In this document: positions 27,891 to 57,181 of the stretch, one piece after another
Position numbering within the stretch: the stretch's first letter is position 1
Layout of the letters: each line of letters opens with the position of its first letter
IMG/VR virus record: IMGVR_UViG_2645727839_000001
Coordinates: 51,469-115,468 of that record
DNA: 64,000 bases
From: a virus
Taxonomy: Duplodnaviria > Caudoviricetes
Direction: 5' to 3' (one strand)
Translations under genes and position numbers: made by a program
Notes under the pieces: model-generated
Database searches by the model: none
Told to the model about the DNA's origin: nothing
What the model saw: the letters and a program-made list of their open reading frames with translations, nothing else

Positions 27891-27914
27891 AAATGATTCC
27901 TCTTTGTGTGCGAT

Positions 27915-27930: not shown

Positions 27931-27999
27931 ATTTGTGTAGTATAAGAAATCATAAACGGGGAAACAACAAGGGACTATGAAAGTCCCTTGCTTTCTAAC

Positions 28000-37117: not shown

Positions 37118-37143
37118 CGTCTTACTACACAAAGAGAAACACT

Positions 37144-37677
37144 ATGGCACTACCACACATTTTACTTTCTGAACTAGAGAAGAAGAGTCAGACAGGCTAC
37201 GACATAAGCTGTATTTTGATTCGCACACCTCACGGGCGTTATTGGCGAGCTAGCCACCAGCAAATTTATCGAGATCTAAACAAGATGCTCGAAAATAAAC
37301 TGGTAACAGTAAGGCTAGTACCGCAAGTAGGTAAACCTGACCGTAAGATTTATTCAATTACCAAGCTAGGGAGGGTTGAACTAAGTGAATGGCTAAGTTC
37401 ACCACCTGAATTGCCTACGTTCCGAGATGAAATGGCCTCTCGAATTATGGCTGCGAAAGGTGAGGACATACCGGGTTTGATTGAATCACTTCTCGAAATG
37501 GAAAACGAGTGCGAAAAGTACCTAGATGTAGTCACAGAAAATCGTAAAATGATCGACGAAGCCGACATTTCCAAGTTTGAAAAGACAAAATTCAAAATCA
37601 TGTTTAACCGAGCAGAAGAGCACTGGTTAAGTTTTTATAACTGGTCAGTAGAAACTCGCCAATTACTGGTGTTGTAG
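37144..37677 (+). CDS. aphA: PadR-family regulator, AphA-like
   Basis: LPH..L..L....TGYDI, W.ASHQQIYR.LNKM, PQ.GKPDRK.YSIT, PT.RDE as in Vibrio AphA. Confidence 0.85.
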   Translation: MALPHILLSELEKKSQTGYDISCILIRTPHGRYWRASHQQIYRDLNKMLENKLVTVRLVPQVGKPDRKIYSITKLGRVELSEWLSSPPELPTFRDEMASRIMAAKGEDIPGLIESLLEMENECEKYLDVVTENRKMIDEADISKFEKTKFKIMFNRAEEHWLSFYNWSVETRQLLVL

Positions 37678-40993: not shown

Positions 40994-41221
40994 CTAGCTT
41001 ATCTTCACTTTAGGAAGACCAATACGCTGTAAATCTTTCGCGATATCTTGAGCTTGTTTTTCTGTGAGTCTGTTTGTATTCATGCGAGTCAGCTTGTTTA
41101 ACTGACGGGAAAGAATACGAGTGGCCAAACGTTCCGCCACCACCTGCCACGGAAGCTTCTTAAATGCGAAGCCCAATAGGTCTTTGCTTAAGCCGTATAG
41201 AATTGATTCCATCTGCCCCAC
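40994..41221 (-). CDS. small lysis-region protein (holin-like?)
   Basis: immediately downstream of endolysin; AAGGAG RBS. Confidence 0.5.
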   Translation of the reverse strand: MGQMESILYGLSKDLLGFAFKKLPWQVVAERLATRILSRQLNKLTRMNTNRLTEKQAQDIAKDLQRIGLPKVKIS

Positions 41222-41224
41222 TCC

Positions 41225-41671
41225 TTAAAGTAATTCATACTTTGTTTTGCCGTTCAACCTTGTTGCTTTCAATGCTTGCTTGCGTGGCAAACCGATATGA
41301 ACCCAACTGTCATACTCGTTAATCACTTGGTCATAGCCGTTAGCTTCTTCAATAATGAACTGGACGACCTGAGCAACGGTTAGTCCTGGCACTCGGAAGT
41401 CAGCCGCTAGTCCTTTCATGTGAGAAGAGGTTCGACTACCTTTGATTGCCGTGTTTAGAGCTGGCGTTCGATAGCCGGATGACACGATGATCTGAAATTC
41501 ACGATCAAACTTCTCTTTCAATTTGTTTCTTAAGCCTTGAAGCCACCAAGCTGTATTACGTAGGTGTACTTCATGCTCTCTGCTAACAGGGACATTAAGC
41601 AGCCCTAGTTCGTCAGCCTTAGACGAGCGGAGCAATTCCCTGCGACTGATGTTTTCTGGATATTCCATCAT
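41225..41671 (-). CDS. endolysin, peptidase M15 family
   Basis: SSGYRT..LN..IKG...SSH..G.AADF, WVHIG. Confidence 0.9.
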   Translation of the reverse strand: MMEYPENISRRELLRSSKADELGLLNVPVSREHEVHLRNTAWWLQGLRNKLKEKFDREFQIIVSSGYRTPALNTAIKGSRTSSHMKGLAADFRVPGLTVAQVVQFIIEEANGYDQVINEYDSWVHIGLPRKQALKATRLNGKTKYELL

Positions 41672-41678
41672 TCTCCCT

Positions 41679-41694
41679 AAGTCACTGGTGACTT
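41679..41694. promoter_or_regulatory. 16-bp operator-like site upstream of endolysin
   Basis: AAGTCACTGGTGACTT. Confidence 0.75.
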
Positions 41695-41734
41695 ACTATT
41701 CATACAAAAATAAAAGGGGCGCAACGCCCCTAGT

Positions 41735-42019
41735 TTAAAGCCCTTGACGTTTTTGTTTAATCAAAGCCGACATTCTTGCCTCTTCAAGAGGAAACGGGGT
41801 TGCTACTGGCCTACCTGCTCTTTCCAGATGCGCAGCAATCGCCTCATCGATAAACTCATCGATAAGATTGGTTTCTGACCTGATCTTATCGAGCTTACAT
41901 TTAGATACCCAAATGTTGGCGCAGACAATATCTCTCTTACCTGCTTCTTCTTTTAAAATTTTCTGACGTTGACGTGAGCGTTTTACAATTTCACTTCTAG
42001 TAAAAGGTTGGTGATTCAT
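41735..42019 (-). CDS. small basic protein (RHH-like?)
   Basis: 94 aa; preceded by operator TAGTCACCTGTGACTT at 42032. Confidence 0.6.
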   Translation of the reverse strand: MNHQPFTRSEIVKRSRQRQKILKEEAGKRDIVCANIWVSKCKLDKIRSETNLIDEFIDEAIAAHLERAGRPVATPFPLEEARMSALIKQKRQGL

Positions 42020-42097
42020 TTTTATCCCTTTTAGTCACCTGTGACTTATCATTGTTTACCAAAGCTAAACCAAGAGAACTTATAAGTAAAGTTCTGG

Positions 42098-43390
42098 TCA
42101 GACGTCTATATATTTGTGGTTATTAATATTTGTATCAATTTGTGTAAACTTATTTTGGTTTATTACATTTCCATCTAAGTACTTGATTGTTTGTTCACCT
42201 ATAAACTGTAATCCGCTCAATGTTTCATGATCAGTACCGGGATGCTTTGAAACATTTAGCCACGCTTCTTTTTTCACGGCGCACATTTTGTACTCAAACT
42301 GGTAAGTGTTTCGACTCACTTCTTCCTGCAATGCTGAATCCTCAAGCATGAAGGCAAAGTTGTCGCTACTGATACCCATCTGGCGACACTTGAGAGATAA
42401 CCGGCTTGCCATCACTTCTGTCATACCTGTTTGCACAACTCGATACTCTTTAGGAAGTACTTTGTACCCCTCTTGATTCTTAGTGCCGTACAGTTCAAGC
42501 ATTTTCTTAACCACTCGAATTGTTTCTGTAACGCTCTCTGAGCTATCGGGACAAATATATAGTGTAAGATTCTTTTCTCTAGCTAAACGCTTTATGTCGT
42601 CGCATACGAGAAGCGAGAAGCAGCTCCAAACGTTGTACGTGTCGATAATACAAATGACATCGCTATAATCGGGTAGCTCTTCAAGGTACTTGAGATAATC
42701 TTTCTCACTTTGCCAACCGATTATCACGTTGTGCTCAAGCAAGTATCGACGTGGCGCAAATCTTAATGGTCGTTCGTAATACTGCTCTAGGAAAAGGTCT
42801 GCACTGATAGAGTCAAACGATGGGAACGCCAGCTTGGTGGCAGAAGATGCCAACTCACACGACATGCTAGGGCAAGCTCGTCCGGTGATGTCATACACGA
42901 TCTTGTGCTCGTCGTGACCAGATAGACTCTTCCAATCATCCAGTATCTCGCGAATCCCCATCATCTTGGTTAGCATTGTCGATGGGTACCAAATTGAACG
43001 CAGCAACAAACTATCCAACTGGTATAGAAGCCAGATAAAGTCTGACGAGTAGCATTCCACCGTCAGCATTACCTCACCGCCTGGCACAAACAATCCTTCC
43101 TCCACAGAACGAATTGAAATAGGCAGATAACCCCCATGATCTTTGACGATTCTCTCCCACCCTTTGATGAACTCTAGATCTCGCTCACCTCGAGCAGCGA
43201 GAACTCTCTTAGCTTCATTTAAGTGGTCTTGGGTTACTGGTTGCTTTAGGAATTGTTGTACGAACGCAGAGATACCAAAGAAATAGCAGTCCTTCTTTGC
43301 TCTCAAGTAAAACTGTGCCGCCTTAATCTCTCGATCGATCAAGTCACGGTTCAATACTTTCGCAGCATCACACGCCAATATCAGATTCAT
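42098..43390 (-). CDS. divergent NAMPT/NadV-like phosphoribosyltransferase (paralogue 1)
   Basis: FFGI..F..Q.L..P.T, GW..I...HGGYLPI.I..V.EG, IWYPST, EH, DTYN, PDS; several catalytic residues altered. Confidence 0.85.
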   Translation of the reverse strand: MNLILACDAAKVLNRDLIDREIKAAQFYLRAKKDCYFFGISAFVQQFLKQPVTQDHLNEAKRVLAARGERDLEFIKGWERIVKDHGGYLPISIRSVEEGLFVPGGEVMLTVECYSSDFIWLLYQLDSLLLRSIWYPSTMLTKMMGIREILDDWKSLSGHDEHKIVYDITGRACPSMSCELASSATKLAFPSFDSISADLFLEQYYERPLRFAPRRYLLEHNVIIGWQSEKDYLKYLEELPDYSDVICIIDTYNVWSCFSLLVCDDIKRLAREKNLTLYICPDSSESVTETIRVVKKMLELYGTKNQEGYKVLPKEYRVVQTGMTEVMASRLSLKCRQMGISSDNFAFMLEDSALQEEVSRNTYQFEYKMCAVKKEAWLNVSKHPGTDHETLSGLQFIGEQTIKYLDGNVINQNKFTQIDTNINNHKYIDV

Positions 43391-44733
43391 AGACTCACCT
43401 CTTCACACTTGCACTTAAAGCGATGACTCACCACTCGATACTTTTCCAAGTTCAACATGCCATTTTCATACATCACCAATCCATCAATGCTTTGAACACC
43501 ACTTAGAGTTTTCTTGCCCGCATCATGTTTTGGATTTTTACAGACACCGGTTGTTTTCCCTGAATGCTTCACTGCGCAGATTTTCTGGATGAAACCTAAC
43601 TCTGCTCTTTGCAATCCAGTTTGGAAATAGTCATCTGACAGGACAAAGAAGAATGAATCGAGTGACCACTTCTCTTGCTCAAGACGATAGATAAGGCGTT
43701 TTAATTGGTCGATGCTTAGATCTTCTGACTGAGAAAGAATGATTGGCGCAGCAAACGACTTGTATCCTTTTTCGTTAACTGTGTGACCGAATGTTTCCTC
43801 CAACATATCTCTAACGAGGAAGAAATCTCGTTCGATGTTGGTTGAGTCAATAGCCATAGATACAGCATGAGATCGGTTGGCAATCTCGCTCTTAAACTTC
43901 TTACCTACCAACTCATTCAACACGTATTCATAGTTGTAGGTATCTAACATGAAATGACACCAACGATGTGGGTAAGCATCTAGTGTTTTACGAATCAGGG
44001 CTTCTTCATTGCCAACGTGTGCCAAAACACAAGCATGATCTTGAACGACATCAAATTCGACCATGAACTTTTCCGTTCGATACATATTGGTAAGCTGACG
44101 AGCGGCTTTAGTTGTAAGGCAGCCGGGAAAGGCCATGCCTAGTATGCTCTGTAAGATGCCAGTCGCATGAGCTGTCCCTAAATCACCGCCACTTCCTGCT
44201 TTGTAATCCGCCATGAATGGGTACAACGATGTCTTCTCGCCATACCAAGACAGTAAACGCCTAGCTCGAGCCGTCTTCAAAGCGATTGTGCTGTCATGCC
44301 ACACACAGGCAAGAAGAAGCTTATCAACCATAGAGGGAAGCATTGGGTAATTGGTATCAGTACTTTCGATTAGATAGATAGGTTCGCCAGCCTTAACGAG
44401 TGAACCCTCTGGTAGTGCTGTGATTTTTACAGGTAGATAACCACCCTGCTCTAGAATCGATTCCCAAAACTCTCGAGGGAAATACTCATTCGCCAACGCT
44501 GCAGCCGATTCTATCTGTTCTTGAGTAATAGGCTTAGCCAGAAACTCTTGAATGAAACGATGAACACCGAATACAGGGATAAGCTCATCTTCCTGACCCC
44601 AGACTCGAGCGCAACCATACGCTTGAGTCCATTCTAATGTCTCAGGTGTCACATTGAGATAAGCCAGCTTCTTACTTTCAATCGCCTCAATTATGCTCAC
44701 GCTTCTTTCCTCGCACGTACTTTTGGAACTCAA
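43387..44733 (-). CDS. divergent NAMPT/NadV-like phosphoribosyltransferase (paralogue 2)
   Basis: VFGV..FI.E.L.KPIT, GGYLPVKI.ALPEGS, DTYN, N.KGYK, K.P..D.GKK. Confidence 0.85.
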   Translation of the reverse strand: MSSKSTCEERSVSIIEAIESKKLAYLNVTPETLEWTQAYGCARVWGQEDELIPVFGVHRFIQEFLAKPITQEQIESAAALANEYFPREFWESILEQGGYLPVKITALPEGSLVKAGEPIYLIESTDTNYPMLPSMVDKLLLACVWHDSTIALKTARARRLLSWYGEKTSLYPFMADYKAGSGGDLGTAHATGILQSILGMAFPGCLTTKAARQLTNMYRTEKFMVEFDVVQDHACVLAHVGNEEALIRKTLDAYPHRWCHFMLDTYNYEYVLNELVGKKFKSEIANRSHAVSMAIDSTNIERDFFLVRDMLEETFGHTVNEKGYKSFAAPIILSQSEDLSIDQLKRLIYRLEQEKWSLDSFFFVLSDDYFQTGLQRAELGFIQKICAVKHSGKTTGVCKNPKHDAGKKTLSGVQSIDGLVMYENGMLNLEKYRVVSHRFKCKCEEVSL

Positions 44734-45628
44734 CGAATTGACCGCAACCGGTTACCAGATGATTATCGCCGGAGGTCATCGGGCCATAGAACGGCAGTAC
44801 CTCGTCATACCCCATGTTTCTCAACACATCGCAGAACTGATCCACCAGCAAGTTAGCTGCCTTCTCACCATCTGGATTTTCAGTACCGTTCTTGCTGTAG
44901 AGAAATTGAATACAAGGAATCCAAACGTCAGGGTCAAAGGTTTCTAGCATCAACTCTGCCGTTTCCTGACTCTGTTCTTTGTTGAAGATGTTGTATGAGA
45001 AGCTGAGTTTATTGGTGGGATTGATATCAAACAACTCTTTGCCGAGCTTTACTATCTCGAGCATCGTTAGCTTGTCGTTAAGCGGAATAAGGTTGTTACG
45101 TTCGATGTAATCCATCTTATGAATTGAAAAGCTAAGAAGAAGTCTCTCACCGAAATCGCGCTGCCAACCCTTCACTAAATCGTAATCGCAATGCAATGGG
45201 CCAATCGAGCTAACAAGCATCATCCAATCTGGATAGTGCTTCACGATGTATCGCATGGCTTTGTCTACTTCAACCACGTTAAGTAGCGGTTCGCCCATGT
45301 ACATCCACTTCACAAACTTAAGTGAGTATTCTGATAGGTCGCCCATGTCATCGATCATCTCTTCAAATTGAGCAATCAATTCATTGGCAGTGGCAGGTCT
45401 TAAGTGGATTCCGTTTGTGCCGCACATTCTGCAGCCGACTGGACAGCCTGAATGTGTAGAAAGATAGATAGAGGCATCATGGCCATTGTGTTTTTTCCAC
45501 CAGTGACCTTCAAACAGAGATTGTCTGTCTAAGCCTTCAAAAGTGAACTTCGATACCATTCTATCAGGCGTGTGAACGGCTCTAATTTCCGCATAGAGAC
45601 TAGAGCCGTTTATTGTTTCCCATTCCAT
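44687..45628 (-). CDS. RlmN/Cfr-like radical SAM enzyme
   Basis: GCPVGCRMC (CxxxCxxC), MYMGEPLLN, SIH, C-terminal GCGQ. Confidence 0.85.
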   Translation of the reverse strand: MEWETINGSSLYAEIRAVHTPDRMVSKFTFEGLDRQSLFEGHWWKKHNGHDASIYLSTHSGCPVGCRMCGTNGIHLRPATANELIAQFEEMIDDMGDLSEYSLKFVKWMYMGEPLLNVVEVDKAMRYIVKHYPDWMMLVSSIGPLHCDYDLVKGWQRDFGERLLLSFSIHKMDYIERNNLIPLNDKLTMLEIVKLGKELFDINPTNKLSFSYNIFNKEQSQETAELMLETFDPDVWIPCIQFLYSKNGTENPDGEKAANLLVDQFCDVLRNMGYDEVLPFYGPMTSGDNHLVTGCGQFVEFQKYVRGKKREHN

Positions 45629-45643
45629 TCTTATTTCCGTGTT

Positions 45644-45659
45644 AAGTCACTGGTGACTT
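45644..45659. promoter_or_regulatory. 16-bp operator-like site upstream of radical SAM gene
   Basis: AAGTCACTGGTGACTT. Confidence 0.75.
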
Positions 45660-45690
45660 ATTCTATCAGCAATAAGAAAAGGATTGCCAG

Positions 45691-48600
45691 TTATACGAAA
45701 GAAGCTTCCTTCCAATCAGACCAACTTCCTGCAGTATTGGCTAATGAGCGAACCCATACTTTGAAATGTAGAAACTTATCCGAATCGTCGTAAACGTTAG
45801 CTTTGTAGGTTTGAATGAACCCCTCACCTGCTGACGAACAAACTAGCTGACCCAATGCACCCTTTTCAGGATACCCATTAGCAACCGTAGCGTACTGCTT
45901 ATGCTTCTGAGTAAAGACTGCATCACCTTTGAGAGTATCTAGGCTTGCACCCTCCAACTCACCCGGATTCTTCAATGTAAGCTCAAGCTGAGTATCGATG
46001 TTTCCGGTGTGAAGCATAGTGTATTTGGTTCTGTTGTCGCTGATCATGACAGTTGGATCGGTCTTCGAGTAAAACTGTAGCGGCACTCGACTAGCACCAA
46101 CTTCTAGATCCCCATCAGTACCCGGAGTCATCTTGATAACTTCGTGCCAATCAGGTGAGCCACCGTCATCTTTTGATTTGACGCGAAGCGGTACATTGTT
46201 CTCTAGTAAAATATCACCATTAGAGCCAACGTATAACGTGCCATCTACATCGCCACCAGCAAGCGGCAGATACTCACCAAACTTGGCAATCAAATCTGTC
46301 TGATTATCAATAGTGCCAATGATAGAACCCCAAGAGCTACCACCACTTGCAATATCGATGTTGCCGTTTTCATCAGGGGATGCATTGTTGATGGTCAGAA
46401 CGAGACGTTTTTCAATGCCACCGACACTTTCCCAAATAGGCACCGTTGTACCTGCGTACAAAGCACCATCGTTCGCACCAAAGCCTTTAATGAATGCACC
46501 CATTACGCCGTGATAACCAAACATTGCGCTATCGCTAGCCACTCGAACAGAGCCAGCTAGAATTTTCTTGAAACCTACATCGATATCACCGTCTGTGTTT
46601 GTTCGAACCACATCAGAGAGATCCGCTTTCAATGCATACAGAGCCAGCTTATCAATTAGGTCTTTCTGAGCATTGATGTCTCCACTGATATATCCCCAAC
46701 GAGCAGGGTTAACGCCAATGTCTAGGTGAACCCACTCGTTACCTGCATCTTTAGACCACATGATAAGGTCACCGCGAGACACATCCATCTTAATGCCAGT
46801 ACAGATTTCAAAGTCTGGATTAGCGACTGTTACAACATAAGCGACACCGCTAGGCTTATCATCTGGCGACTCAAGGTTAGGTGCTACACCACACTCAAGA
46901 GTGGTATTTAACGCATCACCAGTAATCGCATTGGTCATTGCGTCTAGATAGCCACGTACACGAATGAATTCAGGTGTTTCATGATGGAAGTATTCCCAAC
47001 CATTTCCTGTCGGGTTAACACGAATGGATTTACCCACATTTCCTTCTTTGCCCGAAATGACAGGTTCAGCTTGAATACTCTCAGGTGTTAATCCGTGTGG
47101 GTTAACTTCTTTCTCATGGTTATGAAGCTCAGTTGTAAGAGCTGCCAATGCCAATTTACTTGCAGCACCAATGATATCTGTCGTTACACCGTGAGGGTTA
47201 GTCGCAAGTAAGTGGTTATCAAAGACTGTATTTGATAACGCATCGATCATGTCAGGCGTAATCTTATGCGGATTAATTACCTGCAAGTGGCTACTAAAGG
47301 TAGAAATAGGCAATGCGCCAATTTGACCAGGCTGTAAATCAATGCGACCACCACCAGTAGGAGGATTAACACCATTGATTGAAGTAACCGCAGATTGACT
47401 TACCCATTGGCCATCGCTAATACCATAGAAGCCGCCTAGCATTGGGGCTTTGCTCTGGTACTTGGCAAGTTCGGTCTGTAAGTCTAACTGGTTAGCGATG
47501 TCACCTGCGATAAAGCCCCACTCAGCCTTGCCGCCGCCAGATGAAGGATTGAAGTATTCCCAACCTGTGCCTTGCGCGTTTACTCGAATTGATTTGCCGA
47601 TGTTAAGCGGTTTGTTTTCAATTACAGGCTCTCGCTGACTAAGAGCAGAGGCTAAATCTAGCTGCTTCTCGATGTCACCTTTAATTTCGCCCCATTCCAG
47701 AACAGGAACAGCCGGAATAAAATACTCCCAACCATCACCAGTACTATTCACTCGGATAGTCTTACCAACGTTCCCTTTCTTGTCAGCAATCTCAGGTTCG
47801 GCTCCAACATTCAAAGCAGTCAGTAGAACTTTACCGCCTCCGATTGGCGCCTCGATGTCGTTGATTTGGGTGACAGGGTTGCGCTCAGTCCATACGCCAT
47901 TAAGAACACCAACAAAAGATGGTCCAATAGGCGCAGCTACTTGTTTTAGGTTAAGTGCGTCTTGAAGGTCTGCTTGGTTGGCAATATCACCAATGATCGT
48001 TCCCCAAGCCGGTTCTTGCGAAGCTGGCGTGTAGAACTCCCAATTGTTGCCCGTGGCATCAACTCGAATTGCTTTGCCTACGTTAGTGGCCTTGTCTGCA
48101 ATAACAGGTTCTTTTCCATCTAGCTTAGCCATAAGGTCTAGCTGATCTTCAATTACACCTGCAATAGCACCCCATTTAGCACCATCTTGATCACCTACAA
48201 CAAAATATTCCCAACCGTCACCTCGATTGTTAACACGAATTCCTTTACCTACGTTATTAGGTTTGTCTTGAATAAAGGGTTCCATGCCTTGGCGAGACTG
48301 CATGATGATTGATTCAACCGCAGAGCGAGTAAGCGCGTAGGCAAAGTCTGTTGTGTCGGAGTGTCCGGCTGTTAACGCTTTACCATCTCGAGCTAATGCA
48401 CCGACATTGACGTAATCAATCTGAACATTGCCCTGTAGATCTGGTAATTCACCGTTAACGCTGTGTACGCTGCTGCCTACACCACCTTTAACAACCTGCC
48501 ACTTGCGATCTTGTCTTGCATACTGACGACCATCTTGTGGAGCTTCTTCGACACCCCAAGTAACTTCCATACCATGACGATTGAACGCCACAAGCAATTC

Positions 48601-48867
48601 GTTAATTGAGATTTCGCGAGGTGTGTATTCGTCTATTACGATAGTGCCACGATCTAGTTGATCACGACCCTTAGTGATAGTGACACGGTAACGCCCATAG
48701 TGAGCGATTAGAGTGTAATTGCCATCCTTGTCGCTTTTACAGCTAACATTTGTGGAGTCAATTACATCGTAAGAAGTGAGGGATGCGGTCAAGGATACAT
48801 TGCCGAATGGAACAGGCTTGCCATCTGGCCCCTTGAGCACCCCTTTGATTGTAATGTAGCTACTCAT
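45691..48867 (-). CDS. tail fibre / side-fibre protein with internal repeats
   Basis: Stf-like N-terminus (I.GVLK.PDGKP), EAP.DG..YAR.D..W, repeated WGxIxG..Q.DL and NVGKxIRV..WEY. Confidence 0.8.
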   Translation of the reverse strand: MSSYITIKGVLKGPDGKPVPFGNVSLTASLTSYDVIDSTNVSCKSDKDGNYTLIAHYGRYRVTITKGRDQLDRGTIVIDEYTPREISINELLVAFNRHGMEVTWGVEEAPQDGRQYARQDRKWQVVKGGVGSSVHSVNGELPDLQGNVQIDYVNVGALARDGKALTAGHSDTTDFAYALTRSAVESIIMQSRQGMEPFIQDKPNNVGKGIRVNNRGDGWEYFVVGDQDGAKWGAIAGVIEDQLDLMAKLDGKEPVIADKATNVGKAIRVDATGNNWEFYTPASQEPAWGTIIGDIANQADLQDALNLKQVAAPIGPSFVGVLNGVWTERNPVTQINDIEAPIGGGKVLLTALNVGAEPEIADKKGNVGKTIRVNSTGDGWEYFIPAVPVLEWGEIKGDIEKQLDLASALSQREPVIENKPLNIGKSIRVNAQGTGWEYFNPSSGGGKAEWGFIAGDIANQLDLQTELAKYQSKAPMLGGFYGISDGQWVSQSAVTSINGVNPPTGGGRIDLQPGQIGALPISTFSSHLQVINPHKITPDMIDALSNTVFDNHLLATNPHGVTTDIIGAASKLALAALTTELHNHEKEVNPHGLTPESIQAEPVISGKEGNVGKSIRVNPTGNGWEYFHHETPEFIRVRGYLDAMTNAITGDALNTTLECGVAPNLESPDDKPSGVAYVVTVANPDFEICTGIKMDVSRGDLIMWSKDAGNEWVHLDIGVNPARWGYISGDINAQKDLIDKLALYALKADLSDVVRTNTDGDIDVGFKKILAGSVRVASDSAMFGYHGVMGAFIKGFGANDGALYAGTTVPIWESVGGIEKRLVLTINNASPDENGNIDIASGGSSWGSIIGTIDNQTDLIAKFGEYLPLAGGDVDGTLYVGSNGDILLENNVPLRVKSKDDGGSPDWHEVIKMTPGTDGDLEVGASRVPLQFYSKTDPTVMISDNRTKYTMLHTGNIDTQLELTLKNPGELEGASLDTLKGDAVFTQKHKQYATVANGYPEKGALGQLVCSSAGEGFIQTYKANVYDDSDKFLHFKVWVRSLANTAGSWSDWKEASFV

Positions 48868-48880
48868 TTAATTCACCCTA

Positions 48881-48910
48881 TAGAGATAAGTCACCAATGA
48901 CTTATCTCTA
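48881..48910. promoter_or_regulatory. extended palindrome containing the operator core
   Basis: TAGAGATAAGTCACCAATGACTTATCTCTA. Confidence 0.75.
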
Positions 48911-48918
48911 ATAGTAAA

Positions 48919-50253
48919 TTAAACCTCTTCCTTTTGGTACAAAGCTAACTTCAACCATTGACCGCTGTGGTTGCCAAAAATCACCTCATCTTCTTTGTAG
49001 TCATGAGGGTATTTCTCGGTCATTCGGTCGATAACCCTTGAGATGATGTAATCAAAATCGGCATACAAATGAACCATGCCGTTTTCATACGCAAGATTCA
49101 TCTTAGATGCATCAATATAATTATCATCCCACTCAACAGTCTTGTAGCTGATATCTTCCCTAAGCTTTACAGAAGCATCAGAAACGATCTTCTCTGTTAC
49201 TTCGAACGAATACCCATCTACACACCAGTTGTCTTCTCTGAGAGCTTTACAGATAGTTTCAATCTCACTGGCAGAGTCAATGATAGACGGCACACCAAAT
49301 TGCTTGTCTAGATACTTGTAACCCATCGAGTTCATTTCTGAACCAACAAGGTCTTCTAACGTATTCAGCCAAAACTTAGCTCGCTTAATCTTGTCACCGC
49401 CAACTGGGATGAAGTTAATCGAGTTAAGGCGGTCATTTAGAATATCCGGGTACCTTGCTCTAAGGGCTTCTTCAAACTCCTGCTCATCTTCTTCCAAAAT
49501 ATAGAAGTTGATATGAGTAGTTGGTGCAGCCGTTAGAACGTTACCCAGATGCTCTTCAATGCTGATACCACTTAAGCAATGAGAGTAAGCTGATACCGTG
49601 TTCCAGTTCTTCATACCAGATGTATAGTGATCGCTAATCACTTTGAAAGCAGACGGTGTTGTGTCGTAAGGGCTGATCGCTTTGAACGCTAGAGACAGGT
49701 ATTCCAACTCTTGCAGCGTCATGCCTGAGCTTGGCTCCATCATAAAGAGTTTAGCTAGGTCGGTATTAGGTCGGTCAGAACTAAGAACAACCTCTTTACG
49801 AACGGCTTCTCGAGCTTTCAATAGAGCGGCAGACAGTTGCAACACTTTCTCTAGGTGCATCTTAAGCATCCAAGCGATTTGATGGGTAACCCAAACATGC
49901 TCATCGCTGGTGGACTCAATAACTAGAACCACATTTTTGTTTTCTAGGATATGTCCCTCTTGCTCACAGTAGATGCGAACAGGTGGTAAACCATCGAGAT
50001 CGTTTAAAATGCCCTGCCAATCAGCCTTGATAAGATTCAAGCCACCTTTGAAACGTTGCATTGCATCTTCTAGATCATCAAACGTAATGCCTTGCAGATA
50101 CTCGTTAAGAAATGGAATGACACCCATCAGAACCGCATCATCTTCCGACTCTAGTGAGAAACGTACCTGCATACCTTTAACATGCTTGTTCAAAACAAGA
50201 GGTGCTGAAAGACGACGGCTCGAGCTTGAAAAGATTAGATTACTATTCGGCAT
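48919..50253 (-). CDS. highly divergent NAMPT-like protein (paralogue 3)
   Basis: GV..FL.EYL..IT..D..DA, W..IL...DGLPPVRI...EG, N.MGYKYL. Confidence 0.7.
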   Translation of the reverse strand: MPNSNLIFSSSSRRLSAPLVLNKHVKGMQVRFSLESEDDAVLMGVIPFLNEYLQGITFDDLEDAMQRFKGGLNLIKADWQGILNDLDGLPPVRIYCEQEGHILENKNVVLVIESTSDEHVWVTHQIAWMLKMHLEKVLQLSAALLKAREAVRKEVVLSSDRPNTDLAKLFMMEPSSGMTLQELEYLSLAFKAISPYDTTPSAFKVISDHYTSGMKNWNTVSAYSHCLSGISIEEHLGNVLTAAPTTHINFYILEEDEQEFEEALRARYPDILNDRLNSINFIPVGGDKIKRAKFWLNTLEDLVGSEMNSMGYKYLDKQFGVPSIIDSASEIETICKALREDNWCVDGYSFEVTEKIVSDASVKLREDISYKTVEWDDNYIDASKMNLAYENGMVHLYADFDYIISRVIDRMTEKYPHDYKEDEVIFGNHSGQWLKLALYQKEEV

Positions 50254-51073
50254 CGTAAGCCTCCAATTTAGCCTTAATCACACCTGAGTTTCGGATGTAA
50301 TGTTTCTCGACGTGCTTCTTAAGACGGTGAACGTCATTCGCGATACCGGTTTCTTCTTCCAAGTACGGAATGAACTCGTTCATAAAGTCCAATTTGTTGC
50401 CATCTAAGGTCACACTATCGAACGCATCGCAGTATTCCTGCAACATGGCCACTAAACGAATACTTGGAGTTTCAAACGGTGACGGAATTTGAGTAGTCAT
50501 ACCTAGAGCGTGATACGCGCCTTTCTTTCTCATGCAAGAGAAACAGCTACCACAACCAAATTCACCATGTAGTTTGCTACGGCAAGTATGGCTACGTGTA
50601 AGCTCACCCAAATTCATAGCCAAAGACTTAGCTCGTTTGATCACGTCAATTTTCCCATAGCCCTTTTCTGCTAGAGGGAAGCTTAAGATATCGCGCTCAA
50701 ATCGCTCGTTGAACTCATACGCCCAACCTAGCGTGTTGTCTTCAAACAAAGCAGAGTCTGTCATCAATACACCCATGACAATCTTATCTGCTTGGTAGTG
50801 ACGCATTACGTCATACAAGATCCCTTCATACATGAACGGGAACAAATCAACGCCCTCAACATCACGCTTAGGTAGGATATTTCCATAGCCTTTAAAGTCT
50901 CGACGCTGAATTCGTTCTGGTAAGGCTGCATACTCAGCTTCGCTAAATGGCAAACCCAAGTCATACCAAACTGGAATGATCTCTTCGTTCTGGTACTCAA
51001 GCTCTGTCAGCTTAAGTGCTAGTAAGCTATCCATGCCGCTTACCAGTACTACAATTTTCTTTTTAGACATCAA
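50243..51073 (-). CDS. QueC-like PP-loop ATPase, degenerate (paralogue B)
   Basis: IVVLVSGMDS (one Gly missing), TC..CGSCFSCMRK Zn site. Confidence 0.8.
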   Translation of the reverse strand: MMSKKKIVVLVSGMDSLLALKLTELEYQNEEIIPVWYDLGLPFSEAEYAALPERIQRRDFKGYGNILPKRDVEGVDLFPFMYEGILYDVMRHYQADKIVMGVLMTDSALFEDNTLGWAYEFNERFERDILSFPLAEKGYGKIDVIKRAKSLAMNLGELTRSHTCRSKLHGEFGCGSCFSCMRKKGAYHALGMTTQIPSPFETPSIRLVAMLQEYCDAFDSVTLDGNKLDFMNEFIPYLEEETGIANDVHRLKKHVEKHYIRNSGVIKAKLEAYDAE

Positions 51074-51869
51074 CTAATCCCTCTAGTGACAAATCGTTTG
51101 CACGTTCCTTTAGCAACTCAAGTACCCGCTCTGGCTCATCACAACCAAAGTAAGACTCAACGCCGCGGCAAACCACATCGTTCTGAGCCCTTTCCGTTCC
51201 CTCGAATCGAATAGCGGAGTAATCCATAGATAGTTGCTCAACTATCTCATAACAATTCATTGGGTTTGTCTCATCAAAGTCTTTTAGACCAATGGCAGAG
51301 AAGACAGCCCAACGCTTAATACAAACATGGCACTTGCCGCATTTCTTGTGTTCGTGGTGCATACAGCTTGAAGAGTCTTTCAACTCTTCAACTGTCATAC
51401 CATTATCGATAGCCCACTTTGCAGCTTTCAACTTATCAAAGCCGATAGCCTCAAGTGGTGCTTCTACCTCGACTCGCTTGCCAGTTGGCGACACGATGCT
51501 TAATAAATGGTTAAGGCGGTAATAGAACTCATAGCTTTGATCTAAGTACGAGTTCATTTCGCCATATAGAAGACCCAAGAAGATGCGATCTGGGTTCTCC
51601 TGAATCATTGCTTGAGCAATCATGGCAAAGTCTCGACCCGGTAGGTGGGCTTCATCCGATTCTGACACCAAGTAAGGCTCGTTCGGGTTAAGCCATTCGA
51701 ATTTTCGAATGACTGTTCCCTTTGGCAATGATTGACGCTCTTTAAACTCAAACGGATGCCCGTAGTCATAGTGAAGCAGAACAACCTCTGCCTCTGGGTA
51801 GTTAACTTTAGTGAAGTGCGTAAGGATGGTGCTATCCATCCCACCACTAACGAGAACGACAATCTTCAT
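51063..51869 (-). CDS. QueC-like PP-loop ATPase (paralogue A)
   Basis: VLVSGGMDST, DYG, LPGRD, SC..CGKCHVCIKR; GGAG RBS before MKIVV. Confidence 0.85.
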   Translation of the reverse strand: MKIVVLVSGGMDSTILTHFTKVNYPEAEVVLLHYDYGHPFEFKERQSLPKGTVIRKFEWLNPNEPYLVSESDEAHLPGRDFAMIAQAMIQENPDRIFLGLLYGEMNSYLDQSYEFYYRLNHLLSIVSPTGKRVEVEAPLEAIGFDKLKAAKWAIDNGMTVEELKDSSSCMHHEHKKCGKCHVCIKRWAVFSAIGLKDFDETNPMNCYEIVEQLSMDYSAIRFEGTERAQNDVVCRGVESYFGCDEPERVLELLKERANDLSLEGLVDV

Positions 51870-52962
51870 ATTTGCTCCATTCAATCTGAGAGATGAAAAG
51901 GTTTGGTGATAATGCTGATTCAGGGCATTTGCCATTTGGTCTGCTAGATTCGTCATAGATAACCATTGAGTTCTCACCCAAAGTCACAGCTTCACCTTCT
52001 TCGCCAGAATCTCCCCCGACTTTAAGACTGCCACCTGCGCCACCACCTGCACCACCGACTTTACAAACAGGACTTGTTCCAGAACATGAGGCTTTACCGC
52101 CTGTTTTACCAACCAAACCAAAACCACCACCTGCACCACCTGCACCACCGTAAGGTGTTTTTCCCGTAGGTGAGCCGTTACTGCCATTAGGGATACCTTT
52201 GCCGCCAAAGCCTCCCTGACCAGCATCGTAATCGTATGCACAACCACCTTTAGAACAGCCAGTTGTATGACGGTGAGCGCCACCGCCGCCGCCGCCACCG
52301 CCACCACCACTTACAATAGAGTTAGATCCTTTGACAAATCTGACTGTGGCGTTTGTGCCGCCATGAACACCGCCACCGCCTTTACCTCCGCCGCCTCCAT
52401 TCTTAGGGTTCTTAGGGGTGTTGCCATCAAAACCTCCGCCTCCGCCTCCATTACCACCACGACCGATGATTCGGGCACCAGATGACAATTTGATTTTGAC
52501 ACTGGTTTTACCACCGCTAGGCATATTACCCACGGCAAAGGCATAGCTACTCGTTGATGCAGAGCCAATCCGAGCATTAGTGGCCACAGTCACCACAACG
52601 TTTCGAACGTGGTGCTTCTTGATTGACTTCAAGTGAGCTTCTAGGTTGAAGTTGTTACGGGTAGTAATGCTCACAAAGATTGTATTAGAAACCCCATAGA
52701 ATCGAGAGAATGGATAAGGGTTGCCCGGACAAGGCTTACCCGTGTTATCCGCTTCAATCTTACAAAGAATGCCTTTCACATCGCTGATCTTGTTTGGTCG
52801 AGCATCTTCAAACTCTTTACCAATCTGAGCTAGTGTGATTTTTCCCGAGCCCGGTAGCTTGTAATCATCTGGCTTCTGTTTAGGGGCGTTAATATCCACC
52901 CCATCGACAATCTCTTTATTTGTTCCATCTTGGTTAGGAATTAAAATTGGTGCTTTGCTCAT
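51847..52962 (-). CDS. glycine-rich receptor-binding adhesin (gp38-like)
   Basis: IIGRGGNGG, IVSGGGGGGGG polyglycine motifs; directly after S74-bearing fibre. Confidence 0.75.
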   Translation of the reverse strand: MSKAPILIPNQDGTNKEIVDGVDINAPKQKPDDYKLPGSGKITLAQIGKEFEDARPNKISDVKGILCKIEADNTGKPCPGNPYPFSRFYGVSNTIFVSITTRNNFNLEAHLKSIKKHHVRNVVVTVATNARIGSASTSSYAFAVGNMPSGGKTSVKIKLSSGARIIGRGGNGGGGGGFDGNTPKNPKNGGGGGKGGGGVHGGTNATVRFVKGSNSIVSGGGGGGGGGGAHRHTTGCSKGGCAYDYDAGQGGFGGKGIPNGSNGSPTGKTPYGGAGGAGGGFGLVGKTGGKASCSGTSPVCKVGGAGGGAGGSLKVGGDSGEEGEAVTLGENSMVIYDESSRPNGKCPESALSPNLFISQIEWSKYEDCRSR

Positions 52963-55900
52963 GCCGCAACCCTCCCTTTAAGCTCTTCCACTTCTTGCTT
53001 AAGTTCTTTGATTGCTTCGATAAGCAGACCAACCATGTTCCCGTAGGCAACTGACAAGTGACCATCTTCACCTGCAACCACTACTGCTTCTGGCAATACC
53101 GCTTGTACCTCTTGAGCAATAACACCGGTTTGACGAAGCGGGTTTCCATCTTCACCTTTGACATCAATACGATCAAACGTGTAACCGCCAAGTTTCTCAA
53201 CTTTAGCTAGAGCATTATCAATAACTTCAATATTGGTCTTAACTCGTTTGTCCGAATAAGCAGTTACGTTACCTGCCGTCCAAACACCATCACCAATAGC
53301 ACTCTTCGGCACACCATTGGCACACCACACAGCCTGATGACCACCAGCCATCGTACCGCCTGTGGTATTAGTTGTGTGCTTATAACCAAAACCATATAGC
53401 TTGCCGAAATTTGCCCCTGTGGAGTCACCCGGATATGCGGTACCCATTGTCCAAATTACATCGGTCTTTTTGGAATCGTATGTACCACATAAGCCTTTGG
53501 CTCGATTTGTTGAAACTAGGTTGTCACTGAAGCTGCCACCATTTTTACCCATAGCCCCAACTTCACCGTAAGTCGGCTTATGACCCTCGTGGTAAACTTC
53601 GTGCCCCCCTGAAATATCCGCGCTCGTAGCAAACTTAAGTTTCACCCCTGCATCGATACCTAAGTACCTAGATGCTGTGCCTTTGAATTGAATACCAATA
53701 TTTGACTGACCATCTCGAGCCAAAATTAGAGGTGTTGCAGTTGATTTACCAAACGTACCAGTGCCTTTACCTGTAACAGCGCCCGTAACATTTACGCTAC
53801 CGCCTCCAAACTTGTTAGCCCATGCTTCTTTAAACCACCACGTTGAGTTACCAATCTGAGAAGTAGCTGCGCCGCCAGTGCCTTGAGTATGAGGAAGAAA
53901 ACCTGTGGTAGTAGAACCAGCTTGAAGCCACTTATTTCCACCAACTCTTAGGTAGCTATCTGCCACTTTGACATAGTTGTTACCGCCCACGACTGACCAA
54001 GAAGGTTTAAATCCCTCATGGTAGATACGTTGGAACTTCTTATCTTTCCAGTTGTACGAGGTGATGTCACCGGTCTCTGTCTCAAGAACGGTTTGAGTAA
54101 TTTTTGGGTTACCCAAATAAACACGTCGAGTTAGAGGGTTGCCAGAGCCAGGCGGTTTTGTTGGGTCTTTCCCTTCGTTTACACCTGCTACCACCTGACG
54201 AGAGCCACCACCCTGACCCGGACCACCCGGAGGGATGTCATTAGGCAAATTCGTAGAGTAGAAACCTCGGTGTGTAAATACCTTGTCACCTTCAATAGTG
54301 CCGGATACATCTACATTGCTGCCGTAGTAATTCACCACAAAAGCTTTGCCGAATCGCCAACTATCAGTACCAATACTTGAGTTGCCTGTATCTGTGGCTT
54401 TAGATTCGAAAGGTAAGATGCCTAGAGATTTAGACGCAACGCGCAACCAACGAGTTTTTACGAGCGTGTGTCCACCTGACTCACTAAACCAATTTTCACC
54501 ACCTACATCTTTCCAAGTTGGTTTATGCAAGCTTGTATAGATAAGGGCGTTCTTCCACGCTGCTGTGTTTATTTTTGTAGCAAAACGCAGCTCTGTTGGC
54601 TTGGAGTGCTCAACATAGATTGAATGGAAGTAGCTAGAGCCGCCACCCTCATGACCCCAGTGGATAGCATCAGAGTATTTGTTTGGCTGTGGGTCATTTG
54701 CACCTTGAGGCGCACTTGATACCCATAGGCGACTTTTGTTTTTAGTAGCCCATGCACGATTTGTAATGTTGTTTAGGTCGTCGGCTAGTGCCGAGTTAAC
54801 GGCCTTGCCACCAGCTGGTAACACTTTTAGCTCTGCGGCAGTTGGTTTGTGACCTTCGTGATAAACCTCTAGGTCTTTGCTGTTCACATTAAAGATGAGC
54901 TTTTTGTTGATACGTAAGTAACCCTCCCAAGATGTATCTTTAAGAGAGAAACCAATAAACGCACCATCAGCGGATTGACGAAATACAGCTCGTTTTTCCC
55001 CTGCTAAAGCAACAAACTCTTTACCAGTGCCCGTAGCATTATTGATAACAATGTCTGCATCAGTCGATAATCGACCTGTCATCTTATCGCCAGCTTCATT
55101 TAGATAGCGGTCATCAAAGTTCTTTTGGGTCCAGTTTGGAAGATTGCTGATCTTAAGCGCAGCTCTCATTGTGCCGATTGAGATAGGACGAGCTTGGTTG
55201 TCTGAACCTGCACCAACTTCTTTTTGAGCTAAGAAGAAAAGTACGTCATTAACCTTGTGCTCACCTGCGTTAGTTCGAAAGTATCGACTTACCGCGTCAC
55301 CGCCACTGTCACGTAAGAGAAGTGTATTTTTAACAGCTCCCGAATTGGCAGTTTTACCCTGCAACGCGCTTGAGTCATCAGCTTTACCATGAAGAGGCAA
55401 AAACTGAGCTGCGGCTTCTGATTTAAGGATAAGACCACCCGGCCCTGCATTAGCTTCACGCATCAGAGTCGGTAGAATACCTTTGTGGTACACATGGAAA
55501 TCAGTGCCATCGCCACTTCGAAACTTAAGACCATCATTCGCTTTGGCCATCATCACGACAGTCGAGTTGATATCGCCAATGACAGAGTTCTTGTAAGCCC
55601 CTTTAGCGTCAGCTTCCCAACCTACAATTTTAATGTCTGGGTTTGTACCCTGACCTTTCTTCGTAATAGAAGCGTCTTTCGATAACTGAACGTTACCAGT
55701 GAACTCGCCACCGGTTTTTAAAACGCCTCCCATATCGACTACGTTTTCAGATCGAGTCCATCGATCATCTAGCTCTTTTCTCAAGCCAAATACGTGCTCG
55801 ATTTTTAGCTTATCAAGCATGTCTTTGTTGGCGTCGATCATGTCGATAATTTCTTGGAGCTTTTCAACTACCTCATCTGGGTCGCCAACAACTTCAAGCC

Positions 55901-56360
55901 ATGTATCAAAATCATCACGTAGTTTTTTAGTTAAAGCCGCAGACCAAGCTTTGCTAGCATCACCGTTCTTACGATCATTGGTAATGTTGTCTTTGAAGAT
56001 AACATCTGTCGCAGGACGACCATTTACCTCAACAACGTCTACAGCAGGTGTGTTGATACCCAAGTAAGACTTGTCGTGGTTGTGGGTGCGGATTCGAGTA
56101 TCTACATATTCTTGGTTAGTTGCAGTTTTGGTTGGATCGATAATCATCTGCCAATTGGCAGCAGAGCCCACTTGGAGTAGGTAAAGTTTGTTTTCTACCG
56201 TTGAATAGAAAAACTGACCGGGTGCCACCAGCTCTTGGCTTTTAGGGTCTGGGAATTTGGAACCGCTGTTTGACGAAAGTACGGTATGCAAAGAGTTATT
56301 AATCTTCGCAAGACTTTCATAGATGGTGTCTGTGTCTTTAATTACGCTGAAGTGTTGCAT
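52959..56360 (-). CDS. long tail fibre with C-terminal peptidase S74 chaperone
   Basis: VYHEGHKPT repeats; YSDKRVKTNI..GVIAQEV..V.Y..MVGLLIEAIKEL. Confidence 0.9.
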   Translation of the reverse strand: MQHFSVIKDTDTIYESLAKINNSLHTVLSSNSGSKFPDPKSQELVAPGQFFYSTVENKLYLLQVGSAANWQMIIDPTKTATNQEYVDTRIRTHNHDKSYLGINTPAVDVVEVNGRPATDVIFKDNITNDRKNGDASKAWSAALTKKLRDDFDTWLEVVGDPDEVVEKLQEIIDMIDANKDMLDKLKIEHVFGLRKELDDRWTRSENVVDMGGVLKTGGEFTGNVQLSKDASITKKGQGTNPDIKIVGWEADAKGAYKNSVIGDINSTVVMMAKANDGLKFRSGDGTDFHVYHKGILPTLMREANAGPGGLILKSEAAAQFLPLHGKADDSSALQGKTANSGAVKNTLLLRDSGGDAVSRYFRTNAGEHKVNDVLFFLAQKEVGAGSDNQARPISIGTMRAALKISNLPNWTQKNFDDRYLNEAGDKMTGRLSTDADIVINNATGTGKEFVALAGEKRAVFRQSADGAFIGFSLKDTSWEGYLRINKKLIFNVNSKDLEVYHEGHKPTAAELKVLPAGGKAVNSALADDLNNITNRAWATKNKSRLWVSSAPQGANDPQPNKYSDAIHWGHEGGGSSYFHSIYVEHSKPTELRFATKINTAAWKNALIYTSLHKPTWKDVGGENWFSESGGHTLVKTRWLRVASKSLGILPFESKATDTGNSSIGTDSWRFGKAFVVNYYGSNVDVSGTIEGDKVFTHRGFYSTNLPNDIPPGGPGQGGGSRQVVAGVNEGKDPTKPPGSGNPLTRRVYLGNPKITQTVLETETGDITSYNWKDKKFQRIYHEGFKPSWSVVGGNNYVKVADSYLRVGGNKWLQAGSTTTGFLPHTQGTGGAATSQIGNSTWWFKEAWANKFGGGSVNVTGAVTGKGTGTFGKSTATPLILARDGQSNIGIQFKGTASRYLGIDAGVKLKFATSADISGGHEVYHEGHKPTYGEVGAMGKNGGSFSDNLVSTNRAKGLCGTYDSKKTDVIWTMGTAYPGDSTGANFGKLYGFGYKHTTNTTGGTMAGGHQAVWCANGVPKSAIGDGVWTAGNVTAYSDKRVKTNIEVIDNALAKVEKLGGYTFDRIDVKGEDGNPLRQTGVIAQEVQAVLPEAVVVAGEDGHLSVAYGNMVGLLIEAIKELKQEVEELKGRVAA

Positions 56361-57180: not shown

Positions 57181-57181
57181 A

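Follow-up and report, generated by a model that had tools for sequence, protein, structure and literature searches.

The minus strand of a marine phage (Duplodnaviria; Caudoviricetes), IMG/VR record IMGVR_UViG_2645727839_000001, carries six genes for strongly diverged enzyme-like proteins of three families between its tail fibre genes and its endolysin gene: two QueC-like proteins (QueC-A and QueC-B), three proteins of the NAMPT fold (NAMPT1, NAMPT2 and NAMPT3) and a short RlmN-like radical S-adenosylmethionine (SAM) protein. These genes occupy positions 42,098 to 51,869 of the 64,000-nucleotide stretch that was analyzed (the window, bases 51469-115468 of the 115,468-bp record), and coordinates below refer to the window unless the genome is named. 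None of the six proteins satisfies the signature of its own family, as judged by residue comparisons. Three lead enzymes, QueC-A, NAMPT1 and the radical SAM protein, each appear to keep a coherent, non-canonical set of catalytic residues, and the cluster is an insertion relative to the layout of Pseudomonas phage nickie, kept in a small clade. Our tentative reading, which we hold to be somewhat short of probable, is that the region is a clade-specific accessory cluster of neofunctionalized enzymes that would act on host nucleobase or nucleotide metabolites, most plausibly in counter-defence.

Nampt-, QueC- and RlmN-type enzymes each underlie known systems, namely NAD reconstitution, deazaguanine modification of DNA or protein, and methylation of rRNA or tRNA. 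The occurrence of all three types together without their usual partners, and with coherently changed active sites, points to three new subfamilies with directly testable substrates. If the cluster consists of unrelated relics instead, its interest is modest.

A reading of the letters alone that preceded this analysis (hereafter the original prediction) had described the gene order, the protein families and overlapping frames within each block of genes. The list of open reading frames (ORFs) and scans with Pfam, PHROG and NCBIfam models uphold the order and the assignments: S74 fibre, gp38-like adhesin, QueC-A, QueC-B, NAMPT3, second fibre, radical SAM, NAMPT2, NAMPT1, a 94-aa gene and endolysin. 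The overlaps are borne out as well and span 4-47 nt. Fibre, adhesin, QueC-A, QueC-B and NAMPT3 genes are coupled in turn by overlaps of 4, 23, 8 and 11 nt, and the radical SAM and NAMPT2 genes overlap by 47 nt (or by 14 nt, should translation begin at the in-frame GTG 44700), with a further 4 nt shared by NAMPT2 and NAMPT1. The genes are genuine, with translational coupling inside each triplet. Acquisition of the cluster as a foreign island was considered on grounds of base composition and was ruled out, since its genes have a G+C fraction of 0.43-0.49 compared with ~0.44 for the window. NCBIfam scores of the cluster proteins all fall far under the curated cut-offs.

Partner genes were sought by six-frame hidden Markov model searches of the whole complete genome at E <= 1, and control genomes gave matches for every family. 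No match was found for TGT/DpdA (PF01702, which matches in 14 of 14 control genomes), for GTP cyclohydrolase I (FolE) or PTPS (QueD), or for CTP_transf_like/NMNAT (PF01467), NUDIX (PF00293) and Pribosyltran_N/Prs-like (PF13793) domains, each of which was detected in all controls. The radical SAM family PF04055 matches at only two places, the cluster gene and a second RlmN-like paralogue, and because both are RlmN-like the genome has no QueE. Partners had previously been reported missing from the window alone, with the caveat that que, dpd or NARP partners elsewhere in the genome might explain the cluster. The absence extends to the complete genome, where no such partners were detected in the same searches, and this supports the earlier view that the genes fit neither deazaguanine DNA modification nor the NAD reconstitution pathways NARP1 and NARP2. 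We conclude that the cluster is not a queuosine or dpd pathway, nor NARP1, NARP2 or NARP3 NAD reconstitution, with the NARP3 partners PnuC and NadR lying outside the search. Among defence-system models, PADLOC returned its generic QueC model for QueC-A only; the seven further proteins that were scanned gave no match.

QueC-A (51063-51869, minus strand; 268 aa from its ATG) matches PF06508 (4.4e-18), the PADLOC QueC model (4.6e-17) and TIGR00364, the latter with 59.3 bits against a cut-off of 150.3. Passages of PMC13329287 give a refined QueC signature that comprises SGGxDS, YxQxHxxE, VPxRN, YPDC, an essential Tyr189 and C(x)8CxxCxxC. In a profile alignment with B. subtilis QueC 3bl5, QueC-A reads SGGMDS, YdYgHpfE, lPgRD, YlDQsyeF and C(x)7CxxCxxC; it was also aligned to 2pg3. 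It deviates from the signature in that Gln of YxQxHxxE is replaced by Tyr, Asn of VPxRN by Asp and Cys of YPDC by Gln, and in having Met directly after the first zinc Cys, a position that is Tyr in B. subtilis QueC. This Met probably occupies the position of E. coli Tyr189. Equivalents of SGGxDS, Tyr35, His39, Glu42, Arg99, Tyr131 and Asp133 are retained, as is the Cys4 site, so that both the P-loop and the zinc motif of canonical QueC are present, the latter with spacing shorter by one residue. From this residue pattern we predict that QueC-A is a near-canonical PP-loop ATPase of the QueC/Cap9 type. A structural model (predicted local distance difference test score, pLDDT, 76) gives template-modelling (TM) scores, normalized by target, of 0.63 for QueC 3bl5, 0.58 for Cap9 9nto_B and 0.57 for QueC 2pg3; it thus fits QueC and Cap9 about equally and does not discriminate between them.

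QueC-B (50243-51070/51073, minus strand; PF06508 2.1e-6) is a degenerate paralogue with 27.6% identity to QueC-A. Its P-loop is one Gly short (S-GMDS) and equivalents of His39, Glu42 and Arg99 are missing, while the Cys4 site is kept as C(x)9CxxCxxC. By these losses QueC-B is most likely a non-catalytic partner or a relic.

Four kin proteins have 59-73% identity to QueC-A and reside on contigs of 115,571, 110,544, 176,346 and 119,050 bp. A search of prokaryotic genome contigs with the QueC-A alignment returned no kin, and PLSDB plasmids yielded four matches only, at 24-28% identity. Plasmid NZ_CP123001.1 of Neorhizobium petrolearium (219301-231903) encodes a short QueC-like protein 28% identical to QueC-A; its gene shares an operon with several TIR-domain genes and genes for a 'DNA lyase', a PfkB-type kinase and a DUF4231 protein, an arrangement that resembles a defence island.

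The nearest phage relatives of QueC-A, at ~30% identity, are QueC-family PP-loop ATPases of Menderavirus deazaguanine clusters (FolE, QueD, QueE, QueC, DpdA), where the QueC genes adjoin replication genes and are accompanied by FolE and a QueE-like gene. This relationship, the near-canonical state of QueC-A and the loss of nicotinamide-stacking residues from the NAMPT1 pocket (see below) would be consistent with DNA hypermodification, in which host 7-carboxy-7-deazaguanine (CDG) or preQ0 is made into a deazapurine nucleotide for phage DNA and a NAMPT-fold protein replaces DpdA in the coupling step. However, the genome contains no TGT/DpdA, FolE, QueD or QueE, so that the linkage to queD and queE typical of canonical QueC is absent. 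In contrast to the Menderavirus arrangement, the genome has two QueC copies, one of them degenerate, that lie in the fibre-to-lysis interval and not with replication genes, and no kinase or reductase for deoxynucleoside triphosphate synthesis was identified. We regard hypermodification as distinctly improbable.

Conjugation of a nucleobase to protein would be another use of a QueC fold. QueC-family ligases carry out N-terminal carboxydeazaguanylation in the type IV cyclic oligonucleotide-based antiphage signalling system (CBASS) and in Qat, according to passages of PMC13329287, and QueC-A might similarly deazaguanylate the gp38-like adhesin, whose gene it overlaps by 23 nt, or a host immunity protein. 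With Cap9 of type IV CBASS it shares the fold, most ancestral QueC motifs, the C(x)7C spacing (as passages of that source describe it for Cap9), a YxD...F motif and the structural match to 9nto_B noted above. Nonetheless, QueC 3bl5 matches the model at least as well. QueC-A is also phage-encoded and, at 268 aa with a helical C-terminal extension, longer than Cap9 (~185 aa). It has none of the QatC motifs, and with NCBIfam it reaches a negligible 16.9 bits for QatC (0.0022), where the cut-off is 280. No CD-NTase, Cap10, QatA, QatB or QatD partner was detected; the genome has no TGT/Cap10-like match, the CD-NTase, QatA and QatD families not having been searched separately. We regard conjugation as very unlikely.

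The NAMPT-fold proteins are encoded at 42098-43390 (NAMPT1; phrog_448 1e-55), 43387-44733 (NAMPT2; phrog_448 7.1e-51, with its start at TTG 44733 or the in-frame GTG 44700) and 48919-50253 (NAMPT3; phrog_448 1.7e-12, PRK09198 8e-17 and no Pfam match), all on the minus strand. Against PRK09198 they score 205, 174 and 61 bits, respectively, where the cut-off is 405. Their mutual identity is 23-27%. Recent duplication within the cluster was ruled out, as its paralogues are only 23-28% identical.

We aligned the three copies with 10 canonical phage NAMPTs and database representatives and read the alignment against the residue list in passages of PMC12774641. According to those passages, the nicotinamide mononucleotide (NMN) core of Nampt, which Namat retains, consists of the Phe189/Tyr15' sandwich, Arg192, Asp215, Arg306, Asp308, GD(G/A), G(G/S), Arg399' and a catalytic His. 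All three copies lack the DSYK Tyr and DFGxRG Phe that form the nicotinamide sandwich, and all three lack Arg306 and the GDG and GG ribose-phosphate loops. NAMPT1 keeps the catalytic His (in EHN) and equivalents of Arg192, Asp215, Asp308 and Arg399; its replacements are Phe to Ile, Tyr' to Ala, Arg306 to Cys, GDG to TGM and GG to ED. In NAMPT2, only the His and the Asp308 and Arg399 equivalents remain, and the base- and phosphate-binding motifs are gone. Almost all core motifs are lost from NAMPT3, which has the appearance of a relic. Because Namat keeps the Nampt core and these copies do not, they are neither Nampt nor Namat; identity as Namat was rejected on this ground, so far as the core is described in those passages, and canonical NAD salvage was rejected on the motif analysis together with the absent partners.

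The remodelled NAMPT1 pocket is not unique to this phage. Two orthologues (P0046 and P0047) with 38-43% identity occur on the kin contigs of 176,346 and 110,544 bp, and the three proteins have in common the motifs D[AT]AK or ETQK, DI[TA]GR, EHN, [CT]PDS, [TN]G[ML], [LF]ED[SN] and SRxTYxFE[YF]K. The sharing of these replacement motifs indicates that the changed pocket is probably under purifying selection. The ED-for-GG and Ile/Ala-for-Phe/Tyr changes point to a new pair of donor and base for the type II phosphoribosyltransferase fold. As a crude baseline for the association of NAMPT with radical SAM genes described below, given that large phages are enriched for both, some NAMPT1 relative of any kind occurs in 1017 of 50,697 GenBank phage records.

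NAMPT2 and NAMPT3 are most likely non-catalytic partners or relics, judging by the residues that they have lost. The original prediction was right about the three families, and to count six enzymes would overstate the cluster, since QueC-B, NAMPT2 and NAMPT3 have each lost most catalytic residues. Tandem double-NAMPT fusions with unequally degenerate halves occur among the database proteins (P0048, 1000 aa; P0053, 1054 aa; P0062, 751 aa). They are natural pseudo-dimers and a precedent for asymmetric NAMPT pairs, and by analogy NAMPT1 may pair with NAMPT2 as an asymmetric dimer.

The third lead protein, a short class A radical SAM protein of 313 aa (44687-45628, minus strand), is related to RlmN and Cfr. 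It matches RlmN TIGR00048 (1.9e-13) with 50 bits, where 290 would be needed, and is also far below the cut-off for Cfr; the top-scoring PDB entries are Cfr 9p0p and RlmN 6fz6, 4pl1, 5hr6 and 3rf9 (3e-5 to 5e-4). Residues 52-297 align to 115-357 of the RlmN chains 3rf9 and 5hr6. Like RlmN and Cfr, it has a CxxxCxxC cluster motif (CPVGCRMC; Cys62, Cys66 and Cys69), a GEP motif and a methyl-carrier Cys in CGQ, this being Cys295, aligned to RlmN position 355. The methyl-carrier Cys is C355 in RlmN and C338 in Cfr. The four Cys residues are invariant in family alignments.

Two features set the protein apart from RlmN and Cfr. It lacks the N-terminal RlmN domain: its alignment starts at about residue 80 of RlmN models, and PF21016 is found only on canonical matches of 354-375 aa. 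It belongs to a family of ~310-aa proteins without this domain, for which tblastn confirmed 273 places in IMG/VR. In addition, Tyr55 aligns with the resolving Cys (RlmN C118, Cfr C105) of Cfr 9p0p and RlmN 6fz6. Among 107 relatives, of which 38 are database proteins, 68 are ORFs taken from IMG/VR loci and one is the second paralogue, this position is Cys in 101 and Tyr in 6, the latter being the two paralogues of this phage and four kin proteins. The resolving Cys is described in passages of PMC9692996 as indispensable for resolving the covalent enzyme-RNA crosslink and releasing the methylated RNA. Given this requirement and the Tyr found here, the Tyr of this clade might take over the resolving role, the enzyme might catalyze another reaction, or it might stay bound to its substrate. 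The clade offers a natural test of the RlmN/Cfr mechanism.

The second paralogue (320 aa; genome 29054-30016, plus strand) lies outside the window and is 36% identical to the cluster copy. It likewise has Tyr at the resolving position, and CGS replaces CGQ. Its gene is 0.9 kb upstream of a dihydrofolate reductase gene, with one 198-aa ORF between them.

A more adventurous combination of these features would be a phage nucleobase-to-protein system in which QueC-A ligates host carboxy-deazaguanine to protein, the Tyr-clade radical SAM protein, unable to free its methylene-bridged adduct, acts as a single-turnover crosslinker or performs new C-C chemistry on an adenine ring, and the NAMPT pair supplies or recognizes a ribosylated base. 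We consider this a long shot. If true, it would represent the first viral deazaguanylation together with a natural radical SAM methylase variant that does without the resolving Cys.

The neighbourhoods of the radical SAM family were surveyed in the best 80 loci from IMG/VR and in 80 loci each from metagenomes and prokaryote assemblies. A NAMPT gene lies within 10 kb of the family gene in 11 of the 80 IMG/VR loci (L014, L016, L028, L048, L055, L059, L060, L063, L068, L073 and L079), and in the 10 of these with a called ORF it is on the same strand. Several of the 11 are immediate neighbours, 3 loci include a Prs-like gene and 6 an NMNAT/Nudix gene. NARP-like neighbours are also present in loci L178 and L173; the latter is from Vibrio phage 496E54-1, with the order Prs-like, NAPRT-family, radical SAM. 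Among the 80 metagenome loci, mostly canonical RlmN, the association is seen once, and among the 80 from prokaryote assemblies twice. In phages Arash and ANB28, the radical SAM gene has no NAMPT- or Prs-type neighbours. The pairing of radical SAM and NAMPT may be older than the cluster, with the association present in a minority of loci only, and the RlmN-like family may represent an unrecognized accessory gene of counter-defence islands. In the literature, we found no paper that joins QueC, NAMPT and radical SAM in a phage, supplementary tables lying outside the search; the text of the NARP preprint (10.1101/2024.02.11.579819) contains neither 'radical' nor 'RlmN', its supplements (Table S1) likewise falling outside.

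This association raises the alternative that the cluster derives from a NARP-type operon and serves NAD-centred counter-defence, as a module in which radical SAM and NAMPT are the ancestral components, the QueC-like proteins serve as NadE/LarE-like amidators of a pyridine carboxylate, and the product is a rebuilt or altered dinucleotide, such as an NAD analogue that resists defence NADases. The same-strand neighbours in IMG/VR, with their Prs-like and NMNAT/Nudix genes, the gene order of 496E54-1 and the few metagenome and genome loci all agree with such a descent, as does a distant relative, RHph_X66, that has NMNAT/Nudix and NAMPT. Furthermore, LarE is a PF06508 member that acts on a pyridinium carboxylate mononucleotide (passages of PMC13329287). 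NARP1 (Adps and Namat) and NARP2 (Nampt and NMNAT/Nudix) resemble the present cluster in their NAMPT fold, in the catalytic His found in NAMPT1 and NAMPT2, and in that the short radical SAM family adjoins NARP-like genes in other phages. They differ in that no Adps/Prs, NMNAT or Nudix gene is present here, the NARP3 partners PnuC and NadR not having been searched for, and in that the sandwich, Arg306, GDG and GG elements kept in Namat and Nampt, according to passages of PMC12774641, are replaced in all three copies. QueC-A also has a zinc site and QueC-type motifs that LarE lacks, and most loci of the radical SAM family show no NAMPT association. An NAD-centred role is therefore improbable in our estimation.

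Linkage among the lead genes was assessed in their closest kin. Radical SAM kin reside on contigs of 176,346, 110,544 and 119,050 bp, and orthologues of QueC-A, the radical SAM protein and NAMPT1 share the contigs of 176,346 and 110,544 bp. On the latter, the accessions are MEO9497564 (NAMPT1-like), MEO9497567 (radical SAM) and MEO9497570 (QueC-A-like), and if accession order reflects gene order, the three lead genes presumably lie within seven consecutive proteins, as they do here. A survey for conserved linkage to fibre genes had been proposed with the original prediction, which tied the enzymes to the tail fibre module. The lead enzymes do have orthologues on the same kin contigs; the tie to fibres is not general. 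The corresponding interval of nickie holds only fibres and chaperones and none of the cluster genes, and an S74-type, fibre-like match occurs in just 2 of the 80 viral radical SAM loci. The fibre-side position is best explained as a tolerated insertion in a plastic interval, not as a role in fibre assembly. Other searches for kin were unproductive: megablast of the cluster against GenBank phages and a radical SAM scan of IMG/VR found no kin, and the radical SAM kin alignment recovered only distant relatives or canonical RlmN from JGI metagenomes.

If the favoured reading of a neofunctionalized accessory cluster is correct, the enzymes would act on metabolites supplied by the host. QueC-A, probably as a dimer with QueC-B, would use ATP to adenylate a heterocyclic carboxylate, most likely host CDG, for subsequent transfer to ammonia or another amine. 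NAMPT1, probably in an asymmetric dimer with NAMPT2, would join a base other than nicotinamide to a ribosyl donor by way of the conserved His, and would bind this donor although it lacks the customary 5'-phosphate loop. An sp2 carbon in a ring resembling adenine would be methylated by the radical SAM protein, or would keep that protein bound. Such a pathway would yield an unusual nucleotide or nucleoside, for which counter-defence is the most plausible use.

Several observations weigh against this reading. The proposed substrates are guesses drawn from motif changes. Linkage in kin is deduced from matching contig sizes and from an order given by accession numbers only, and since kin genomes share most genes anyway, it is weak evidence of shared function. 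Beyond the small clade the three families do not co-occur; among loci of the radical SAM family, none of the 80 viral, none of the 80 metagenome and none of the 80 genome examples includes QueC, and alignments of NAMPT1 and of QueC-A recovered no relative of their respective types from IMG/VR. A word-based search of 5.8e9 proteins with NAMPT3 returned only NAMPT3 itself and nothing on the kin contigs, and this orphan status may mean that at least one cluster member is decaying.

As an alternative, the genes might be unrelated morons and decaying pseudoenzymes, acquired separately into a hypervariable fibre-to-lysis interval. Several would then be inactive relics, and those still working would function on their own; the radical SAM protein, for example, might methylate RNA and QueC-A might raise preQ0 production in the host. 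The orphan NAMPT3 has almost no core motif, QueC-B and NAMPT2 lack key residues, nickie has none of the genes, and 69 of the 80 viral loci of the radical SAM family lack NAMPT. End branches in the NAMPT tree are very long (3.3 for NAMPT2, 8.6 for NAMPT3 and 1.05 on a stem of 1.61 for NAMPT1, compared with a median of 0.86), although the tree was built by a quick method and with such branches its placements are unsafe. A genome-wide repeat, described below, bounds the blocks and could promote shuffling. However, independent acquisition does not readily account for the overlapping frames inside each triplet, for the presence of the three families within seven consecutive genes in kin of 38-64% identity, or for replacement motifs that are conserved among the NAMPT1 orthologues and not random. 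We consider a collection of morons unlikely, if still to be reckoned with.

The repeat just mentioned is the perfect palindrome TAAGTCA-N4-TGACTTA, copies of which had been taken for operators of the enzyme modules. Copies lie 20 nt upstream of the second fibre gene (48887-48904), 15 nt upstream of the radical SAM gene (45643-45660) and, with 1 mismatch, upstream of the 94-aa gene (42031-42048), and a further copy precedes the endolysin gene (41678-41695). At <=2 mismatches the genome contains 38 copies where 0.56 are expected from 50 shuffles. Most precede a start codon by 0-90 nt, and they occur on either strand and in every module, replication and structure included; other examples in the window are at 1330-1347, 17365-17382 and 27914-27931. 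The genome-wide count rules out a module-specific operator, and the palindrome is a genome-wide intergenic element, not a regulator of the enzyme cluster. It may form an RNA hairpin, mark a processing site, serve a phage regulator as operator or act as a recombination hotspot.

The cluster is bordered upstream by fibre genes. The distal tail fibre (52959-56360, minus strand; 1133 aa) has a C-terminal S74 intramolecular chaperone domain (Peptidase_S74 PF13884, 1.3e-17; phrog_11011, 1.5e-54). Its gene overlaps by 4 nt that of the Gly-rich, putative gp38-like adhesin (51847-52962, minus strand; 371 aa), a protein with poly-Gly runs. The adhesin has no match in Pfam (E <= 0.01), PHROG or NCBIfam; its assignment comes from an ESM Atlas link to PF05268 Gp38 clusters (feature similarity 0.97; Atlas model TM 0.60/0.73). 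The second tail fibre (45691-48867, minus strand; 1058 aa) matches PF08400 phage_tail_N (6.5e-8) and tail fibre PHROGs. Upstream of the 1133-aa fibre, the region 56338-58582 (minus strand) encodes a 306-aa protein with tail fibre PHROG matches and an S74-type C-terminus, which is 43% identical to the C-terminus of that fibre, and a 466-aa fibre-module protein with a C-terminal H-type lectin domain (PF09458, 3e-7).

On its downstream side, the inserted interval is delimited by a 148-aa endolysin (41225-41671, minus strand; phrog_894, 7.9e-29). The original prediction placed lysis genes here, of which only this endolysin is recognizable. The 94-aa and 75-aa products of the genes that flank it (40994-42019, minus strand) have no informative family match and no hydrophobic or transmembrane-like segment, and neither a holin nor a spanin could be recognized close to the endolysin gene. 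Ten neighbouring ORFs without assigned function gave nothing relevant in Pfam.

The record (CheckV completeness 100%) is a complete ~115-kb siphovirus that bears parAB and has Nickievirus-like synteny. A minus-strand structural operon (terminase, portal, scaffold, major head protein and tape measure; genome 806-14311) crosses the record end into a J-like central fibre gene at window positions 59109-63458. Downstream of the fibres come the endolysin and then the replication genes, which encode DnaB, primase, ligase, CobT/CobS-like proteins, DNA polymerase, single-stranded DNA-binding protein, exonuclease, a UvsX/RecA-like protein and SbcCD. This order agrees with that of nickie, whose portal protein is the best GenBank match at ~50% identity. 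The CobS-like and CobT-like genes (16161-19829, minus strand) lie between the DNA polymerase and ligase genes, as they do in nickie.

Genes for ParA-like and ParB-like partition proteins (21067-23357, plus strand) form a plus-strand islet of lower G+C content within the minus-strand replication module. Kin proteins occur on 110-119-kb contigs from assemblies labelled Vibrio owensii and from a Vibrio splendidus metagenome-assembled genome, and together with parAB this suggests a phage-plasmid lifestyle; from the same assembly labels, the host is presumably a Vibrio. A gene for a Cro/CI-type HTH_3 protein and one for a PadR-family regulator (36773-37677, plus strand) are divergent from the replication genes, and both are candidates for control of lysogeny or the plasmid state, or for binding to the palindrome.

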